Source: a virus
Taxonomy: Duplodnaviria > Heunggongvirae > Uroviricota > Caudoviricetes
Strand: one strand, 5' to 3'
DNA: 46,955 nt
IMG/VR virus record: IMGVR_UViG_643348547_000013
The translations under genes and the position numbers were made by a program. The notes under the pieces were generated by a model. It was given only the letters and a program-made list of their open reading frames with translations, was not told the origin of the DNA and searched no databases. Positions 38,181 to 46,955 of the stretch are shown piece after piece. Each line of letters begins with the position of its first letter. The first letter of the stretch is position 1.

Positions 38181-41100
38181 ATGGGTAAAGGCAGCAGTAA
38201 GGGGCATACCCCGCGCGAAGCGAAGGACAACCTGAAATCCACGCAGTTGCTGAGTGTGATTGATGCCATCAGTGAAGGGCCGATTGAAGGTCCGGTGGAT
38301 GGATTAAAAAGCGTGCTGCTGAACAGTACGCCGGTGCTGGACACTGAGGGGAATACCAACATCTCCGGTGTCACGGTGGTGTTCCGGGCAGGTGAGCAGG
38401 AGCAGACTCCGCCGGAGGGATTTGAATCCTCCGGCTCCGAGACGGTGCTGGGTACGGAAGTGAAATATGACACGCCGATCACCCGGGCCATCACGTCGGC
38501 AAACATTGACCGACTGCGTTTTACCTTCGGCGTGCAGGCACTGGTGGAAACCACCTCAAAGGGGGACAGGAATCCGTCGGAAGTCCGCCTGCTGGTTCAG
38601 ATACAACGTAACGGTGGCTGGGTGACGGAAAAAGACATCACCATTAAAGGCAAAACCACCTCACAGTATCTGGCCTCGGTGGTGGTGGGTAACCTGCCGC
38701 CGCGCCCGTTCAATATCCGGATGCGCAGGATGACGCCGGACAGCACCACAGACCAGCTGCAGAACAAAACGCTCTGGTCGTCATACACCGAAATCATCGA
38801 TGTGAAACAGTGCTACCCGAACACGGCACTGGTCGGCGTGCAGGTGGACTCGGAGCAGTTCGGCAGCCAGCAGGTGAGCCGTAATTATCATCTTCGCGGG
38901 CGCATTCTGCAGGTGCCGTCGAACTATAACCCGCAGACGCGGCAATACAGCGGTATCTGGGACGGAACGTTTAAGCCAGCATACAGCAACAACATGGCAT
39001 GGTGTCTGTGGGATATGCTGACCCACCCGCGCTACGGCATGGGGAAACGTCTTGGTGCGGCGGATGTGGACAAATGGGCGCTGTATGTCATCGGCCAGTA
39101 CTGCGACCAGTCAGTGCCGGACGGCTTTGGCGGCACGGAGCCGCGCATCACCTGTAATGCGTACCTGACCACACAGCGCAAGGCGTGGGATGTGCTCAGT
39201 GATTTCTGCTCGGCGATGCGCTGTATGCCGGTATGGAACGGGCAGACGCTGACGTTCGTGCAGGACCGACCGTCGGATAAGGTGTGGACCTATAACCGCA
39301 GTAATGTGGTGATGCCGGATGATGGCGCGCCGTTCCGCTACAGCTTCAGCGCCCTGAAGGACCGCCATAATGCCGTTGAGGTGAACTGGATTGACCCGGA
39401 TAACGGCTGGGAGACGGCGACAGAGCTTGTGGAGGACACGCAGGCCATTGCCCGTTACGGTCGTAACGTCACGAAGATGGATGCCTTTGGCTGTACCAGT
39501 CGGGGGCAGGCACACCGCGCCGGGCTGTGGCTGATTAAAACAGAACTGCTGGAAACGCAGACCGTGGACTTCAGCGTGGGTGCTGAAGGGCTTCGCCATG
39601 TTCCGGGCGATGTCATTGAAATCTGTGATGATGACTATGCCGGTATCAGCACCGGTGGTCGCGTGCTGGCGGTGAACAGCCAGACCCGGACGCTGACGCT
39701 CGACCGTGAAATCACGCTGCCATCCTCCGGTACCACGCTGATAAGCCTGGTTGACGGAAGTGGCAATCCGGTCAGCGTGGAGGTTCAGTCCGTCACCGAC
39801 GGCGTGAAGGTGAAAGTGAGCCGTATTCCTGACGGCGTTGCCGGATACAGCGTGTGGGGGCTGAAGCTGCCGACGCTGCGCCAGCGCCTGTTCCGCTGTG
39901 TGAGTATCCGGGAGAACGATGACGGTGCGTATGCCATCACCGCCGTGCAGCATGTACCGGAAAAAGAGGCCATCGTGGATAACGGAGCGCACTTTGACGG
40001 CGACCAGAGCGGCACGGTGAATGGTGTCACGCCGCCAGCGGTGCAGCACCTGACCGCCGAAGTCACCGCAGACAGCGGGGAATATCAGGTGCTGGCGCGC
40101 TGGGACACGCCGAAGGTGGTGAAGGGCGTGAGCTTCCTGCTCCGTCTGACCGTAACAGCGGATGACGGCAGTGAGCGGCTGGTCAGCACGGCCCGGACGG
40201 CGGAAACCACTTACCGCTTCAGGCAGCTGGCGCTGGGGCGTTACACGCTGACGGTCCGGGCGGTAAATGCCCGGGGACAGCAGGGCGATCCGGCGTCGGT
40301 ATCGTTCCGGATTAACGCACCTGCAAAACCCGCCACCATTGAGCTGACGCCGGGGTATTTTCAGATAACGGCGGTCCCGCGTCTTGCGGTGTATGACCCG
40401 ACGGTACAGTTTGAATTCTGGTTCTCAGAAAAACGCATCACGAACACAGCACAGGTGGAAAAATCTGCCCGTTATCTGGGGACCGGCAGTCAGTGGACTG
40501 TCCAGGGGAGCCGGATTAAGCCGGGGACGGATTTCTGGTTTTACGTGCGCAGCGTCAACCTGGTGGGAAAATCTGCTTTTGTGGAAGCCAGCGGGCAGCC
40601 CAGCAATGATGGTGAAGGGTATCTGGAAATTTTCCGGGGGCTGATAGATGAGACGCTTCTGGGCCAGGCACTGAAAGAGCGCATTGATGCTTCAGCGCTG
40701 CGTACGGAGGTCACGCAACTGGAAGAAGACATCCGTCAGCGGATGGACACGGATATCGCAGAAGTGACCCGGAAAATCGGGGAGGCGGAAAACAGCCTCA
40801 CGCAGCTGGTTGCGAAAAAGAATGAGGACCAGACACTGGCCATCGCGCAGGTGAGCCAGAAAGTGGACCGGGTGAGCAGTGAAATCTCACAGACTGTCAG
40901 CCAGGGGCAGTCAGAAAATGCCCGACAGATAGCACAGGTCCGCCAGTACGTGGATAAAAAAGGGAGTGAAATTACCTCGACCACGGATAAAAAACTGGGT
41001 GACCAGGCCGTGACCATACAGCAAATCCAGCGGGTTCAGTCAGACACGCGCAATGAGCTGAATGCCATGTATATGCTGAAGGTGCAGAAAACAAAAAACG

Positions 41101-41879
41101 GTATTCCCTATGTGGCCGGGATTGGTGCGGGGATTGAGGATGTTGATGGTCAGACGCTGAGCAGTATTCTGCTGCAGGCGGACCGTATCGCGATGATTAC
41201 CCCGGAGAATGGCAACACCACGCCGCTGTTTGTGGCGCAGGGGAATCAGCTGTTCATGAACGACGTGTTCCTGAAGCGACTGTTTGCGGTGAGCATCACG
41301 TCATCCGGCAATCCTCCTACGTTTTCCCTGACGCCGGATGGCAGGCTGACAGCCCGCAATGCGGATATCAGTGGAGCCATCACGGCGAATACCGGCACGC
41401 TCAATAATGTCACCATTAACGAGAACTGTGTCATCAGAGGGAAACTGTCTGCAAACCAGATTGAAGGCGATCTCGTTAAAACAGTGGGTAAGGCTTTCCC
41501 CCGTGACTCCCGTGCACCGAAGCGTTGGCCATCAGGAACCATTACCGTCAGGGTTTATGACGATCAGCCGTTTAACCGGCAGATTGTTATTCCGGCGGTG
41601 GCTTTCAGCGGTGCCAGACATGAGCGGGAGAACAGCGATACTTATTCGTCATGCCGCCTGATAGTGAAGAAAAACGGTGCTGAAATTTATAACCGTACCG
41701 CGATGGATAATACGCTGGTTTACAGTGGTGTTATTGATATGCCTGCTGGTCGCGGCCACATGACGCTGGAGTTTTCTGTATCAGCATGGTGGGTAAATGG
41801 CTGGTATCCCACAGCAAGTATCAGCGATTTGCTGGTTGTTGTGATGAAGAAAGCCACTGCAGGCATCACGATTAGCTGA
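38181..41879 (+). CDS. J: host-specificity / central tail fibre protein J
   Basis: 1232-aa ORF downstream of I, lambda gpJ-like. Confidence 0.9.
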
Positions 41880-41946: not shown

Positions 41947-42546
41947 ATGCGTAAATTATGTGCTGTTATTCTGTCCGCAGTAGTCTGGCTGGTTGCCGCT
42001 GGTACGCCAGTGAGCGCAGCAGAGCATCAGTCCACACTAAGCGCCGGGTATCTTCAGACCCACACTGATATGCCAGGCAGCGATGATCTGAACGGGATTA
42101 ACGTGAAATACCGTTATGAATTTACGGACACGCTGGGGCTGGTGACGTCATTCAGTTATGCCAATGCCAAAGATGAGCAAAAAACGCATTACAGCGATAC
42201 CCGCTGGCATGAAGATTCCGCGCGTAACCGCTGGTTCAGCGTGATGGCGGGGCCGTCTGTGCGCGTGAATGAATGGTTCAGTGCTTATGCGATGGCAGGT
42301 GTGGCTTACAGCCGTGTGTCGACTTTCTCCGGGGATTATCTCCGCGTAACTGACAACAAGGGGAAAACGCACGACGTGCTGACCGGAAGTGATGACGGTC
42401 GCCACAGCAACACGTCTCTGGCGTGGGGAGCTGGCGTGCAGTTTAACCCGACCGAATCCGTGGCCATTGACCTTGCTTATGAAGGCTCCGGCAGTGGCGA
42501 CTGGCGAACGGATGCATTTATTGTTGGTATCGGATACCGTTTCTGA
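41947..42546 (+). CDS. lom: Lom-like outer-membrane protein (Ail/Lom family)
   Basis: Signal peptide and beta-barrel pattern ending in aromatic residue. Confidence 0.85.
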   Translation: MRKLCAVILSAVVWLVAAGTPVSAAEHQSTLSAGYLQTHTDMPGSDDLNGINVKYRYEFTDTLGLVTSFSYANAKDEQKTHYSDTRWHEDSARNRWFSVMAGPSVRVNEWFSAYAMAGVAYSRVSTFSGDYLRVTDNKGKTHDVLTGSDDGRHSNTSLAWGAGVQFNPTESVAIDLAYEGSGSGDWRTDAFIVGIGYRF

Positions 42547-42697
42547 CAACAGACGCCGATTTATCTTCTGTAAATATTGTTATGATACGCAGGTTCATCC
42601 ACCTTATGGGGTGAACTGCGTTTGAGGAAACGTAAAGTTACACTGTCCTGAAGCCCGTGGCGTCACTGCTGCGGGCTTTTTTTATTGGTGGAAAAGT

Positions 42698-44755
42698 ATG
42701 ACAGTAAAAATTTCTGGCGTGCTTAAAGATGGCACAGGAAAACCAGTACAGAACTGCACCATTGTGCTGAAGGCCAGACGGACCAGCAGCACGGTGGTGG
42801 TGAACACGGTGGCCTCTGAAAATCCGGATGAAGCCGGGCGTTACAGCATGGATGTTGAGTATGGCCAGTACAGCGTCACCCTGCTGGTTGAAGGTTTTCC
42901 GCCTTCACATGCCGGGACCATTACCGTCTATGAAGGTTCCAGACCAGGTACGCTGAATGATTTTCTCGGTGCCATGACGGAGGATGATGTTCGTCCGGAG
43001 GCACTGCGCCGTTTTGAGCTGATGGTGAATGAAGTGGCACGTCATGCCGGAGCATCATCACAGAGCGCAGCGGCAGCAAAGAAATCCGAAACTGCAGCGG
43101 CATCATCGAAGAACGCGGCGAAAACCTCAGAAACGAATGCAGCTAACAGCGCACAGGCGGCAGCGGCCTCGCAGACTGCATCGGCAAACTCCGCGACAGC
43201 AGCCAAAAAATCAGAAACCAGCGCGAAAAATAGCGAGACAGCCACAAAGGCCAGCGAAAAAAACGCAAAATCCAGCCAGACGGCAGCGAAAACCAGTGAG
43301 ACGAATGCCAAAGACAGTGAAGCCAACGCAAAGGTGAGCGAAACAGCGGCGGCGAACTCGGCGAAAGCATCGGCAGCAAGCCAGACGGCAGCAAAAGCAA
43401 GTGAAGATGCTGCCAGAGAATACGCAAACCAGACAGCAGAGCCGTACAGATATGTTTTACAGCCGCTGCCGGATGTGTGGATACCCTTTAATGATTCGCT
43501 GGATATGATTACGGGCTATTCTCCGGGTTATAAAAAAGTGAAGATTGGTGATAATGTGGTTCAGGTTGCCAGTGATAAACAGGTTAATTTCAGTCGCGCA
43601 TCAACGGCAACATATATCAACAAATCTGGCGAACTGAAAACGGCGGAAATTAATGAGCCACGATTTGAAAAAGAAGGTTTATTGATTGAAGGTCAGCGAA
43701 CCAACTACATGTTGAATTCAGCAACTCCAGCTTCTTGGGGTAAATCTGCAAATATGAATGTCGCTGAGGTTGGAACTGATAGTTTTGGTTTTACTTATGG
43801 AAAGTTTGTTTGTAATGAATCATTAATTGGGCAAAGTACAACCCTTAATATGGCAGTAGTTTCAACCTCGGGGGCTGTCGATGTATCAGGCGATAATAAG
43901 TGTGTGACGACATCGTGCAGATTTAAAACGGATTTGGAACTCCTGTTAAGGATCAGGTTTGAAGCCTTCGATGGCAGCGCTTCATCTAATCTTGGATATG
44001 CCATTGTTAATACGCGGTCTTTATTGGTTGAAATCACCGGTGTAGCTGCCGACAGGCTCACCGCACGAGTTAGCAAAGATGAAGCTACGGGCTGGATTTT
44101 TGTAGAGGCAACGATTCAAGCAAGTAAAGAAACTTACATAACCTCTGCAATACAATACGCACCAAAATCTGGTGGCGTCGTTGAATCTGGTGACTATATT
44201 TATCTGGCCACTCCTCAGGTTGAGGATGGTTCGTGTGTATCATCTTTTATTATATCAGGAACGACGGCGGCGACGCGCGCAAGCGATATGGTGACAGTTC
44301 CGATTAAGAATAATCTTTATAATCTTCCTTTTACGGTTCTTTGTGAGGTACATAAGAACTGGTATAAAACGCCAAATGCAGCACCGCGTGTTTTTGACAC
44401 ATACCGGCATCAGGCAGATGCGGGGATCGTAATGGGGTTTGGTTCATCAGGTGGGTACGACGGTTTTCCGTATTGTGATATAGGTGGTTCAAACCGACGA
44501 ATAAATGAAAATGCCGGGCTGGAAAAAATGCTTATTGGTATGCGGGTAAAGTCCGAACGGTCCACATGTGTAGTCAGTAACGGTAAGTTAAGCAGCGAAA
44601 CTAAAACCAAATGGGAATATATCCGGAGTACAGCAACCATTCGCATTGGTGGACAAACTACAGCAGGATTACGCCATTTATTTGGGCATGTGAGGAATTT
44701 TCGTCTCTGGCATAAAGAGCTAACAGATGCGCAGCTTGGGGAGGTTGTGGAGTGA
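42698..44755 (+). CDS. stf: side tail fibre protein with non-lambda C-terminal receptor-binding domain
   Basis: N-terminus MTVKISGVLKDGTGKPVQNCTI recalled from lambda Stf; Ala/Ser/Lys repeat shaft; C-terminal third is lower-GC and ends in a LamG/ConA-lectin-like signature. Confidence 0.8.
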   Translation: MTVKISGVLKDGTGKPVQNCTIVLKARRTSSTVVVNTVASENPDEAGRYSMDVEYGQYSVTLLVEGFPPSHAGTITVYEGSRPGTLNDFLGAMTEDDVRPEALRRFELMVNEVARHAGASSQSAAAAKKSETAAASSKNAAKTSETNAANSAQAAAASQTASANSATAAKKSETSAKNSETATKASEKNAKSSQTAAKTSETNAKDSEANAKVSETAAANSAKASAASQTAAKASEDAAREYANQTAEPYRYVLQPLPDVWIPFNDSLDMITGYSPGYKKVKIGDNVVQVASDKQVNFSRASTATYINKSGELKTAEINEPRFEKEGLLIEGQRTNYMLNSATPASWGKSANMNVAEVGTDSFGFTYGKFVCNESLIGQSTTLNMAVVSTSGAVDVSGDNKCVTTSCRFKTDLELLLRIRFEAFDGSASSNLGYAIVNTRSLLVEITGVAADRLTARVSKDEATGWIFVEATIQASKETYITSAIQYAPKSGGVVESGDYIYLATPQVEDGSCVSSFIISGTTAATRASDMVTVPIKNNLYNLPFTVLCEVHKNWYKTPNAAPRVFDTYRHQADAGIVMGFGSSGGYDGFPYCDIGGSNRRINENAGLEKMLIGMRVKSERSTCVVSNGKLSSETKTKWEYIRSTATIRIGGQTTAGLRHLFGHVRNFRLWHKELTDAQLGEVVE

Positions 44756-45030
44756 GAGATTTCACGTTGCGTTTCAGTGATAAAGCAGATTTCAGGGCAT
44801 TTCTCAGGAAACTTAACTGGGAAGAGGACGAAGAGCTGCAGAATGCCGTTCTGGTTGATGAGATTGGTTTTACGTTCAGGGAGACAGATGTTTCTGATGA
44901 CGGAGAACCAGAATACACGCGAAACGAAGGGTACTTTGTTAATATCCGTCTTCTTGACGATGGATTTGATGATTCCGTGTTCCGTGAGTGGGTGGTTACA
45001 CCAGAGCGCCCGCTCAGGGAGTGGTTTTAA
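44752..45030 (+). CDS. hypothetical acidic protein
   Basis: 92-aa ORF (GTG start overlapping stf stop); no family recognised. Confidence 0.4.
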   Translation: MRDFTLRFSDKADFRAFLRKLNWEEDEELQNAVLVDEIGFTFRETDVSDDGEPEYTRNEGYFVNIRLLDDGFDDSVFREWVVTPERPLREWF

Positions 45031-45039
45031 GGATAGCAG

Positions 45040-45333
45040 ATGGATATCACGTCGATACTTCATGCGCTTTGTGCCGTGGCGGTGCAGGTACTGGCTGGTC
45101 TTTTTACCGGAAACTGGGCTTACGGGGCGATAGCTGGTTGTACGTTCTTCATTGCGCGTGAACACACCCAGGCAGAATATCGCTGGATTGAAATGTTCGG
45201 GCATGGCAAGCGAATGAATATGCCGTGGTGGGGCGGTTTTGATCCGCGCGCGTGGGATGTGGCAAGCCTGATGGATTTTGCTGTGCCGGTGGTGGCGTGT
45301 CTGCTGGTCTGGCTGTTGGTTAATCGTGGGTGA
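45040..45333 (+). CDS. hypothetical small membrane protein (two predicted TM helices)
   Basis: 97-aa ORF with hydrophobic N- and C-terminal segments. Confidence 0.45.
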   Translation: MDITSILHALCAVAVQVLAGLFTGNWAYGAIAGCTFFIAREHTQAEYRWIEMFGHGKRMNMPWWGGFDPRAWDVASLMDFAVPVVACLLVWLLVNRG

Positions 45334-45343
45334 AAAAAGGTGA

Positions 45344-45472
45344 GCTGTATATGCAACGGAGGAAGAAACTCCGTTGCTGGAAGCCTGGAAGAAGTATCGG
45401 GTGTTGCTGAACCGTGTTGATACATCAACTGCACCTGATATTGAGTGGCCTGCGGTCCCTGTTATGGAGTAA
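45344..45472 (+). pseudogene. tfa: 3' remnant of tail fibre assembly gene tfa
   Basis: Frame encodes ...[40 protein letters not shown], matching the conserved Tfa C-terminus; in-frame stop at 45341-45343 and no start codon. Confidence 0.7.
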
Positions 45473-45584
45473 TCGTTTTGTGATATGCCGCAGCAACTTG
45501 TCATGGCAGGATACTGCGGCTGATTTGTGAATTTAAATAGTGTGTTTATTGCTTTATATATAAAGGATTTAATGGATTACATAT

Positions 45585-46955
45585 CTATGATATCCCTGAA
45601 ATGTCCTCTTCAAGCTCTTTTACTGATTTCGCAATTTTAAATTTAAATTTTCTCTCTATTTCACTATTGCTAAGTTTTTTTTCATTCTCTTTCCCTATCC
45701 ACATAGAAACAATTTCTCGTTTCTGAGATATATGTAGATTGTCAAAGTTAGGTATGTATTTAAAAGTCTCCGCTCTACCCCTGCGGAGTTCATAGAAAGT
45801 TTTAATCAAAGACTTTGGTTTTATTTCTGATGAAAGGCCGAATCGGCGGATAAGATTATTGATCGTATGATTAACAGCTCGAAGTTGAGCTGTTGACGTT
45901 ATTTGTGAGAAGTACGATACCCATCCCAATCGTTTACCTTCAAACACACATCCCGTAATTCTAAGATTTAGTTTCCACTGACAATATGCAACAGCTCGTT
46001 CTTTATCGCGCTTATTTTTAGCTTGTAGTAGAGCGTGTCTATATGCAGTAAAAATTTTTGCTAAGGATGACTCAAATCTAAGAATGCTCTCATGTTTTAT
46101 CAATAATTCTCGATTTTTTATGTGGTAGCCCAAAAAGTTGAAACTTTCATCCAAGCTGCCTACTTTGGATTTTGAGTTCTCTTCATTTAATGGATGTGGG
46201 TTTAAATTTAATGATTGAAGCTTATCAATGATATGAGATGCAATTTTTGTTGCTTGATCTTTTTGCGTTAAAATAAGAATGTCATCAACGTATCGCATGT
46301 ACCATATGTCATGCATTTTATTGATTTCATTGTCGAAATCAGATAGTGATATTTCAGCTAAAATGTTTGATATTGCTAACCCCTGAGGTACTCCTCTGGT
46401 ATTATTAGGGACACCTTTGCTTCCTGTACTTCCACTTACAGTAGGCACGATTAATGATGATGTTATTAACTGCCTAATTTCTTTTTTTCTAATCTTATTT
46501 TTTATTGCATTAAATATCAATTTATGTTCAATTGAAGGATAGAAACTTTTGAGATCTATTTTTGCATATTCAGCATATAGATCGCTGTTTAATGCATTTT
46601 TCAATAAGTCAATTACTGTATGTGGTAGTTTTAATCTGGAGTTAGGATATATTTCTGTAAGGCATTCACAGAGAGCCCTAAGGGTAATTCTGTCCCTGGC
46701 AGTTGGTATGGAAATCTGTCTGGGGATAGAGTTAGCCCCTTTAGATATTAATTTTTCTTTATATGCTGTAAATTTATAATTTCCACAATTAACCTTTTCA
46801 AAAATAAAAGTGATCTCATTCTTTATTGTTAAATCAAGTTTTGATGGACGAATCCGATCTATGCCAATCGCTCCTGATTCTTTGATTTTTTCATTGTATA
46901 CTTTTAGAAGGTTTTTTTTCGAGAATGACTTTTTAAAAACTCTGCTTGCATTCAT
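45585..46955 (-). CDS. standalone reverse transcriptase (retron / Abi / DRT-like), family unresolved
   Basis: 456-aa AT-rich ORF with RT motifs in order: PRQISIPTARDRITLRAL, NALNS...KIDLKSFYPSI, PQGLAISNILAEI, YVDD (YMRYVDDILIL), FNFLGYHI, then a roughly 180-aa C-terminal extension; start codon sits at the window edge. Confidence 0.85.
   Translation of the reverse strand: MNASRVFKKSFSKKNLLKVYNEKIKESGAIGIDRIRPSKLDLTIKNEITFIFEKVNCGNYKFTAYKEKLISKGANSIPRQISIPTARDRITLRALCECLTEIYPNSRLKLPHTVIDLLKNALNSDLYAEYAKIDLKSFYPSIEHKLIFNAIKNKIRKKEIRQLITSSLIVPTVSGSTGSKGVPNNTRGVPQGLAISNILAEISLSDFDNEINKMHDIWYMRYVDDILILTQKDQATKIASHIIDKLQSLNLNPHPLNEENSKSKVGSLDESFNFLGYHIKNRELLIKHESILRFESSLAKIFTAYRHALLQAKNKRDKERAVAYCQWKLNLRITGCVFEGKRLGWVSYFSQITSTAQLRAVNHTINNLIRRFGLSSEIKPKSLIKTFYELRRGRAETFKYIPNFDNLHISQKREIVSMWIGKENEKKLSNSEIERKFKFKIAKSVKELEEDISGIS

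Follow-up and report, generated by a model that had tools for sequence, protein, structure and literature searches.

A lambdoid side-tail-fibre locus as a probable old mosaic with an exchanged tip, two small genes of separate history and a tfa scar

It is familiar both that unrelated phages trade fibre tips and that a fibre gene is followed by the gene for its cognate chaperone, and a locus in which the tip has been exchanged while hardly anything is left of the usual chaperone gene raises the question of what now accompanies the new tip. Such a locus is found in a 46,955-nucleotide stretch of DNA from a virus of the Caudoviricetes (IMG/VR record IMGVR_UViG_643348547_000013; "the window" below means this whole stretch), in which the late operon of a lambdoid prophage carries a side-tail-fibre gene (stf), two small genes, here called ORF92 and ORF97 after the lengths of their products, and the 3' end of a tail-fibre assembly gene (tfa). 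An earlier reading made from the DNA letters without database searches (the sequence-only reading) had seen here a replacement of the receptor-binding module in this prophage, together with two inserted small genes that might encode a new chaperone or form a pair of morons.

We favour, with moderate confidence, a reading in which the whole is an old four-piece mosaic of a lambdoid stf locus, with a glycan-binding tip, ORF92 as the partner of that tip, ORF97 as a protein concerned with surface polysaccharide, and a tfa scar. The lambda-type N-terminus would attach the fibre to the tail, and residue 255 onwards would constitute a mobile tip cassette of 430 residues, in which a beta-sandwich resembling carbohydrate-binding modules (CBMs), homologous to the capsule-binding head-spike fibre of the gene transfer agent RcGTA, is followed by a LamG/ConA-like domain, the tip as such binding a surface polysaccharide. 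ORF92, translationally coupled to stf, would act as the acidic cytoplasmic assembly or folding partner of the cassette at the position of Tfa. ORF97 would be an independent, conserved inner-membrane protein whose gene temperate phages keep as the 3'-terminal member of their receptor-binding operons; it would be expressed late, from the transcript of the fibre, and act either on the assembly or export of surface polysaccharide or on the entry of competing phages (receptor masking, exclusion). Finally, the tfa remnant and the lambda-like sequence after it would be the non-functional right-hand scar of an ancestral recombination.

Residues 1-131 of Stf match PF08400 (228.9 bits, E 2e-68) and lambda orf-401 aligns with residues 1-158 at 74% identity, which, together with the gene order J, lom, stf, identifies the N-terminus as that of a lambda-type Stf. 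The shaft that follows (residues ~120-250) is rich in Ala, Ser, Lys, Thr and Glu, and several registers align with the 'AAKTSETNA' repeats of lambda; Tandem Repeats Finder reported zero tandem repeats in the DNA of this region, so that the repeats are degenerate and detectable at the protein level only. In the tip, lambda orf-314 (the C-terminal half of the lambda fibre) gives no significant alignment with residues 255-685, i.e., by this comparison Stf lacks the lambda-type, Tfa-dependent C-terminal region, and the guanine-plus-cytosine (GC) content drops from 0.55 to 0.38-0.47 across 43400-44900. The earlier description of a lambda-like N-terminus and repeat shaft leading into an unrelated C-terminus of lower GC is thereby borne out, as is the view that the receptor-binding module was swapped by recombination for a tip that is not of the Tfa type.

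The distribution of this tip among phages is wide. Residues 255-685 match phrog_1419 (E 0) and phrog_5939, and tblastn recovers the tip in 221 phage records, in 204 of them at near full length, distributed over six or more lineages, which places it among the most widely exchanged coliphage tips. It is carried on lambdoid Stf N-termini, on P2-type fibre N-termini (PF12571/PF03406) and on the lateral fibres of virulent phages, including Drexlerviridae (orkinos, KarlJaspers), T5-like phages (KookSpook, IrisVonRoten), Queuovirinae (VogelGryff, ESCO3), Dhillonvirus and the rV5-like CarlMeissner; the virulent carriers may also be grouped as T1-, T5-, 9g- and rV5-like. These relatives are 42-80% identical to the window version, while a protein of E. 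coli IAI39 is 100% identical to the C-terminal 431 residues of Stf and thousands of E. coli prophage proteins contain the cassette. By these alignments residues 255-685 are a single unit that is mobile between phages. Additionally, in P2-like E. coli prophages (L178/L179, 4001-8052) a P2 H-type N-terminus is fused to the same tip cassette. The same coliphage fibre module, at 46-71% identity to the window, also occurs in records labelled as Campylobacter phage C13 (MG065692) and Listeria phages LM 4-11-1 and LM 4-14-1 (OR847733, OR849447), which are probably mislabelled or contaminated entries.

The cassette begins with a conserved linker, beyond which residues 329-528 (window 43682-44281) match the NCBIfam family of GTA head-spike fibres, NF048003, scoring 50.2 bits where 36 is the cut-off. 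Among the PDB sequences this domain matches Rcc01080 (GhsB) of RcGTA (6tb9, E 1e-6), the alignment pairing Stf residues 298-543 with Rcc01080 residues 45-286. An AlphaFold2 model of the tip, built from an alignment of 26 sequences with 48-94% identity, has a confident part with significant structural matches to CBMs, as would be the case for a beta-sandwich of that class. The last 175 residues match Laminin_G_3 (PF13385) in each of nine family members tested, the homologues scoring 16.8-34.1 bits, with KookSpook as the sole member above the threshold (34.1 bits, E 3.8e-8). Further, variation within the cassette is highest in the CBM-like and LamG-like domains, which is what one would expect if these determine specificity. 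Two points tell against this picture of the tip: the window copy itself reaches just 14.7 bits with Laminin_G_3 (E 0.035), below the gathering threshold of 27.6 bits, and the model has an overall predicted local distance difference test score (pLDDT) of 49, with the last 180 residues, the LamG-like end among them, left unmodelled. Hence, of the earlier proposal of a laminin-G/ConA-like ending what stands is the family-level match, that of the window copy being weak, and the structure prediction suggested along with it yields a confident CBM-like part and no model of the end. A profile search of the PDB with the last 175 residues likewise returned nothing beyond the Rcc01080 boundary.

The head fibre of RcGTA attaches the particle to the polysaccharide capsule, with just residues 2-10 resolved (PMC7296036). 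The homologous domain is deployed differently in the two systems, as Rcc01080 is a single-copy head decoration on a pentameric base, whereas the domain in the window forms the distal end of a tail fibre and has an extra LamG-like domain after it. Taking the homology and the model together, the ligand of the tip is most likely a polysaccharide of the cell surface, either O-antigen or capsule, and not OmpC, and the tip would function without Tfa.

The right-hand boundary of the exchange is preserved in the tfa remnant. Its frame lacks a start codon and is preceded by a stop, and from 45352 onwards its DNA scarcely differs from the end of lambda tfa, the match running past the stop of that gene into the hairpin region downstream of the lambda gene; the corresponding hairpin of the window, GCCGCAG...CTGCGGC at 45487-45520, went uncalled in a consensus terminator scan because its loop is too long. 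An intact Tfa frame, one that has its own start and encodes the Caudo_TAP domain (PF02413), is thus absent and the last 40 codons are what remains, in line both with the sequence-only reading, which had described a remnant of roughly 40 codons, and with the Prokaryotic Genome Annotation Pipeline (PGAP), which labels it a tail fiber assembly protein pseudogene that is incomplete and missing its N-terminus. The junction between the 3' flank of ORF97 and the remnant, at which GGTGAGCTGTATA meets TGCAACGGAGGAAG, is identical in the window, in phage 21 and in 2G7b, and a single ancestral event must have made it. What has happened since differs: in phage 21 sitABCD cuts the tfa remnant shorter, and in 2G7b a methyltransferase gene is inserted nearby.

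Comparison with the stf-tfa loci of related phages, a check proposed earlier, accordingly recovers the same arrangement in phage 21 and 2G7b. In phage 21 (OL657228, CPT_21_22 to CPT_21_24) an stf of 686 amino acids is followed by a 92-amino-acid gene and a 97-amino-acid membrane-protein gene, with the same 4-bp overlap between stf and the 92-amino-acid gene, and this gene order is shared by the relatives grouped with it (mEp460, ev207, ev017, Perceval, ev243). The alleles are distinct, the phage 21 tip being only 62% and its ORF92 64% identical to those of the window, and the shortened scar of phage 21 contrasts with that of the window, which reaches the lambda stop intact and has a UG17 reverse-transcriptase defence gene after it. 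At least 80% of window 44700-45600 is present in 249 complete E. coli genomes, and over this region the chromosome of E. coli FDAARGOS_1288 is 99.9% identical. Judged by these sequences, the tip was replaced long ago and many genomes share the result, so that the locus is a fibre mosaic of an ordinary kind rather than something special to this prophage.

The two small genes are present and conserved, the one encoding an acidic and the other a membrane protein as first described, but the idea that they were inserted as a pair does not survive. ORF92 is as low in GC as the tip and comes after it everywhere, virulent phages included. ORF97, on the other hand, has a lambda-like GC of 0.55, is ~94% identical across lambdoids in which ORF92 is only 43-64% identical, i.e., across different stf alleles, and in other temperate phages is also found after tailspikes and after tfa. 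By these comparisons ORF97 is a real gene whose history is separate from that of ORF92.

ORF97 belongs to phrog_1443 (E 4e-58), and its family comprises 339 clusters at 50% identity. An invariant core, RExxQAEYRWI...NMPWWGGFDPRxW, is flanked by hydrophobic segments (~residues 5-39 and 76-94 in the window), and the ratio of nonsynonymous to synonymous substitution rates (dN/dS) of 0.05-0.25 indicates purifying selection. Searches of Pfam (PF02413 included), NCBIfam, PADLOC and the PDB sequences gave zero matches. The possibility that it is a lipoprotein was rejected, the IAGC motif at residues 30-33 not being kept in the homologues. In the loci collected, ORF97 follows stf-ORF92 in every lambdoid examined, whereas those virulent phages and P2-like prophages that carry the cassette lack it. 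Elsewhere it keeps other company: in the P22-like phage Gally a homologue follows the tailspike; in the P22-like vB_EcoP-611R6 (L095, 1905-3788) it comes after the tailspike, an OafA-type O-acetylase and a 37-codon 'tail fiber protein' fragment and before int, a site that is a classical serotype-conversion locus; and in Halomonas phiHAP-1 it overlaps the end of tfa. Comamonas and Pantoea prophages (L112, 2551-4294; L114, 2297-4294; L118; L124) have a phrog_5939 GTA-spike-type tail protein, an ORF92-like gene (phrog_18574), which is sometimes fused to an extra domain, and an ORF97-like gene, joined by 4-bp start/stop overlaps, and this same three-gene order suggests that the trio is older than the enterobacterial lambdoids. 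Additionally, the virulent Escherichia phage HC6 (L177, 2965-3120) has an unannotated, degenerate 51-codon fragment of ORF97 (ANIPWWGGFDWRAWDLPSLLD) after an 859-amino-acid tailspike/fibre gene, which suggests that HC6 acquired its receptor-binding cassette from a temperate phage, the membrane gene decaying afterwards.

Outside phages the family points towards polysaccharide. Among 76 non-Escherichia genome loci, 19 have the ORF97 homologue directly 3' of Capsule_synth (KpsC/S-like) or Poly_export/SLBB (KpsD/Wza-like) genes, in Erythrobacteraceae, Novosphingobium, Devosia and Aureimonas (Alphaproteobacteria); by these neighbours, some of the family reside within capsule operons of the kps type, as unannotated small membrane proteins. 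The surrounding genes include KpsF-like, KpsU-like, GT2, sulfatase-family and UDP-glucose dehydrogenase genes; examples are L166 (2829-4309), L129 (2601-4297), L127, L130, L131 and L136. Phages are well known to carry, beside their receptor-binding genes, small membrane-protein or lipoprotein genes by which receptors are masked or surface glycans altered, among them T5 llp, cor of phi80 and N15, the O-polymerase inhibitors of epsilon15 and D3, and the gtr/oac conversion loci of P22. ORF97 is similar in being a small membrane protein encoded directly 3' of receptor-binding genes and, in P22-like phages, in standing in the conversion locus beside an O-acetylase. It differs in having no sequence relationship to any of these (with no Pfam, PADLOC or NCBIfam match), no conserved lipobox and relatives in capsule operons. 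From these contexts we infer, with low confidence, that ORF97 is a late-expressed protein linked to surface polysaccharide or to incoming phage. Three observations speak against such a role: the capsule context is limited to distant taxa and, among the non-Escherichia loci, to roughly one in four; no E. coli kps locus is known to hold an ORF97-like gene; and the ORF97 copy of Gally has a terminator 5' of it together with a weak promoter-like site, as would fit a moron.

This last arrangement leads to the best-surviving alternative, namely that ORF97 is a classical moron, a membrane protein for lysogenic conversion or superinfection exclusion that is expressed from the prophage independently of the fibre and protects the lysogen. 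We regard this as possible and hold it at about one chance in four. Beyond Gally it would account for the near-confinement of ORF97 to temperate phages and its decay in the virulent HC6, for its occupation of the P22-like conversion locus between tailspike (or O-acetylase) and int, and for a GC content and evolutionary history unlike those of its upstream neighbours. The promoter-like count in Gally, however, is no higher than the shuffled expectation. The transcriptome of strain LF82, which represents one strain in lysogeny broth (LB) under one condition, reports no moron in Gally, and its list of morons for Perceval includes the adjacent sit operon and not the ORF97 homologue (PMC9928086). 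Likewise, a mere 9 nucleotides separate ORF97 of the window from ORF92 and its upstream side shows no promoter-like site, and the Comamonas ORF97-like gene overlaps its upstream gene by 4 bp. Of the marks of a moron, a promoter and terminator of its own and expression from a repressed prophage, the window copy thus shows no promoter, and its homologues are, within the LF82 data, not among the genes expressed from the prophage. The moron half of the earlier suggestion is thus weakened for ORF97, and its chaperone half is the best reading for ORF92 alone, on the contextual evidence that follows.

The GTG start of ORF92 shares 4 bases (GTGA) with the end of stf and is preceded by GGAGG 8 nucleotides upstream, a Shine-Dalgarno sequence; its product, with an isoelectric point of 4.26, belongs to phrog_1361 (E 1e-40), while searches against Pfam (again with PF02413), NCBIfam, the PDB sequences and PADLOC gave zero matches. 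Homologues of 30-98% identity occur in 191 phage records (compared with the 221 of the tip), every time adjoining a fibre gene, and across the collected loci a tip-type fibre frame lies directly 5' of the ORF92-like gene in 98/98, a set that includes seven virulent phages of four lineages and two P2-like prophages. Its presence in strictly virulent phages means that it is no lysogeny gene. Codon analysis of 89 loci found ORF92 free of in-frame stops in all of them, with a dN/dS of 0.35 that comes from the single informative close pair. More remotely, the phrog_18574 gene of the Comamonas and Pantoea prophages takes the same position; a direct hhalign comparison of the ORF92 family with the Comamonas 95-amino-acid frame is weak (E 0.004, probability 9%), and the claim of homology follows from the shared phrog_18574 match and the shared position.

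In these respects the locus resembles lambda Stf-Tfa, as well as P2 H-G and T4 gp37-gp38, where the gene for a fibre with a receptor-binding C-terminus likewise has a small accessory gene translationally coupled to its end; with lambda it further shares its place after J and lom, the N-terminal attachment domain, the shaft, and mosaic junctions in the shaft and at the tfa 3' end. It differs in that the tip is unrelated, ORF92 is not a Caudo_TAP protein and has half the size of Tfa, and tfa itself is a scar. Among the T5-like phages, DT57C with its LtfA and LtfB offers a comparison, since relatives of the module also have a second fibre gene after them and O-antigen recognition is presumed for the fibres. 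LtfA and LtfB, however, end in autocleaved S74 chaperone domains (PMC4728585), whereas a Pfam scan of Stf detects no Peptidase_S74 domain and the tip has a separate small partner gene. The P2-like prophages are informative as well: their tip fibre is followed by ORF92, a Gp34_trimer fibre and Caudo_TAP, in this order, so that each fibre is paired with an accessory gene of its own. Translational coupling, adjacency and this pairing make it most likely that ORF92 is a tip-specific assembly or folding factor standing in the place of Tfa.

Set against this are, first, that the adjacency counts are biased, most loci having been fetched by similarity to ORF92 or ORF97; second, that ORF92 has no fold relative among known chaperones; third, that a mirror-tree comparison of ORF92 with the segments of the fibre gave r of 0.07-0.50, no meaningful correlation; and fourth, that in many phages a second fibre gene follows, leaving ORF92 between two fibre genes. 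The mirror-tree result rejects a co-adaptation of ORF92 to a particular tip allele, and as its identity tracks no segment of the fibre, ORF92 would be a generic partner of the cassette family and not of one allele.

In 2G7b (L005, 4647-5684), VogelGryff (L003, 5556-6722) and ESCO3 (L004, 5587-6642) the second fibre gene encodes 345-390 amino acids, is annotated 'endosialidase chaperone' and lies between ORF92 and ORF97 or right after ORF92; it is missing in the window and in phage 21.

It is the second fibre gene following in many phages that makes the main competitor for ORF92 a structural one, in which the protein is a small virion component, an adaptor of branched fibres that docks the second fibre onto the tip-bearing primary fibre, and has been kept in the window after loss of the second fibre gene. 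We consider this unlikely, at roughly one chance in five. The two tandem pairs of fibre and accessory gene in the P2-like prophages suggest that the fibre there is branched.

That both small frames are selfish or neutral passengers of a recombination hot spot, sitting where mosaic junctions are tolerated and playing no part in host recognition, is very improbable: the stf 3' region is indeed a known mosaic junction at which cargo accumulates (the tfa scar, the 2G7b methyltransferase gene, the phage 21 sit operon), but ORF97 is under strong purifying selection, ORF92 keeps an intact frame across six phage lineages at the range of identities given above, its translational coupling is kept in very distant hosts, and streamlined virulent genomes retain it.

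Host range is set by tail-fibre tips, and engineered lambda particles already rely on chimeric Stf tips; if the 92-residue partner replaces the need for Tfa, the engineering of such fibres must include it. A bolder version of our reading, in which ORF92 founds a new family of assembly factors for CBM-like plus LamG-like tips and, at the same time, ORF97 is a captured component of the kps pathway that switches off or remodels the receptor polysaccharide of the phage, is doubtful, and we would give it some one chance in five. If true, ORF97 would represent a new kind of receptor masking or exclusion that works through capsule or O-antigen export, and a real link between ORF97 and capsule would disclose both a small uncharacterised component of capsule assembly and the manipulation by temperate phages of their own receptor; otherwise, the locus is an example of ordinary fibre-module shuffling.

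The gene order as such is already annotated in phage 21 and in many other records. Literature searches on the protein accessions, the PHROG identifiers and the stf of phage 21 found no description of the two small genes, and neither gene receives any discussion in the papers on BASEL, DT57C and Eligo; as far as the searchable literature shows, the character of both is undescribed.

Coordinates of the elements of the locus and of its neighbours are collected in Table 1.

Table 1. Features of the stf locus and its surroundings, in window coordinates (aa, amino acids)
Feature	Coordinates	Strand	Description
J	38181-41879		lambdoid prophage late-operon tail at the right end of the window
lom	41947-42546		between J and the intrinsic terminator
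intrinsic terminator lom/stf	42650-42679	+	strong; 13-bp stem, T run after it
stf	42698-44755	+	685 aa
lambda-type N-terminal part of Stf: attachment domain (aa 1-131), shaft of degenerate repeats (aa ~120-254)	42698-43459	+	PF08400, lambda orf-401 match, GC 0.53-0.56
swapped tip cassette (Stf aa 255-685)	43460-44755	+	linker, CBM-like domain, LamG/ConA-like domain
ORF92	44752-45030	+	acidic 92-aa putative cytoplasmic alpha/beta protein; phrog_1361
ORF97	45040-45333	+	97-aa putative inner-membrane protein; phrog_1443
tfa 3' remnant	45352-45472	+	3'-terminal 40 codons of a tfa gene, lambda type; PGAP pseudogene 45353-45472
lambda-homologous stretch 3' of tfa	45473-45520	+	right-hand homology arm; aligned with lambda and 2G7b
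reverse-transcriptase gene	45585-46955	-	456 aa, UG17 class

A terminator is annotated at the same site between lom and stf in the phage 21 record, and its presence there implies that stf, ORF92 and ORF97 presumably need antiterminated late transcription. On the opposite strand, a 364-codon frame (44410-45504, -) covers ORF92, ORF97 and the tfa remnant and would encode a low-complexity protein; it is almost certainly spurious given this low complexity and its overlap with two genes under purifying selection.

On the matching chromosome of FDAARGOS_1288, PGAP annotates a tail fiber N-terminal domain protein, two hypothetical proteins and the tfa pseudogene, followed by the reverse transcriptase, a SLATT-domain gene, dinI, which is frameshifted, and prfC. 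PADLOC assigns the reverse transcriptase of the window to RT_UG17 with 527 bits, further Drt3a-like matches falling under the cut-off, and its combination with the SLATT gene at the right end of the prophage looks like a candidate defence system.

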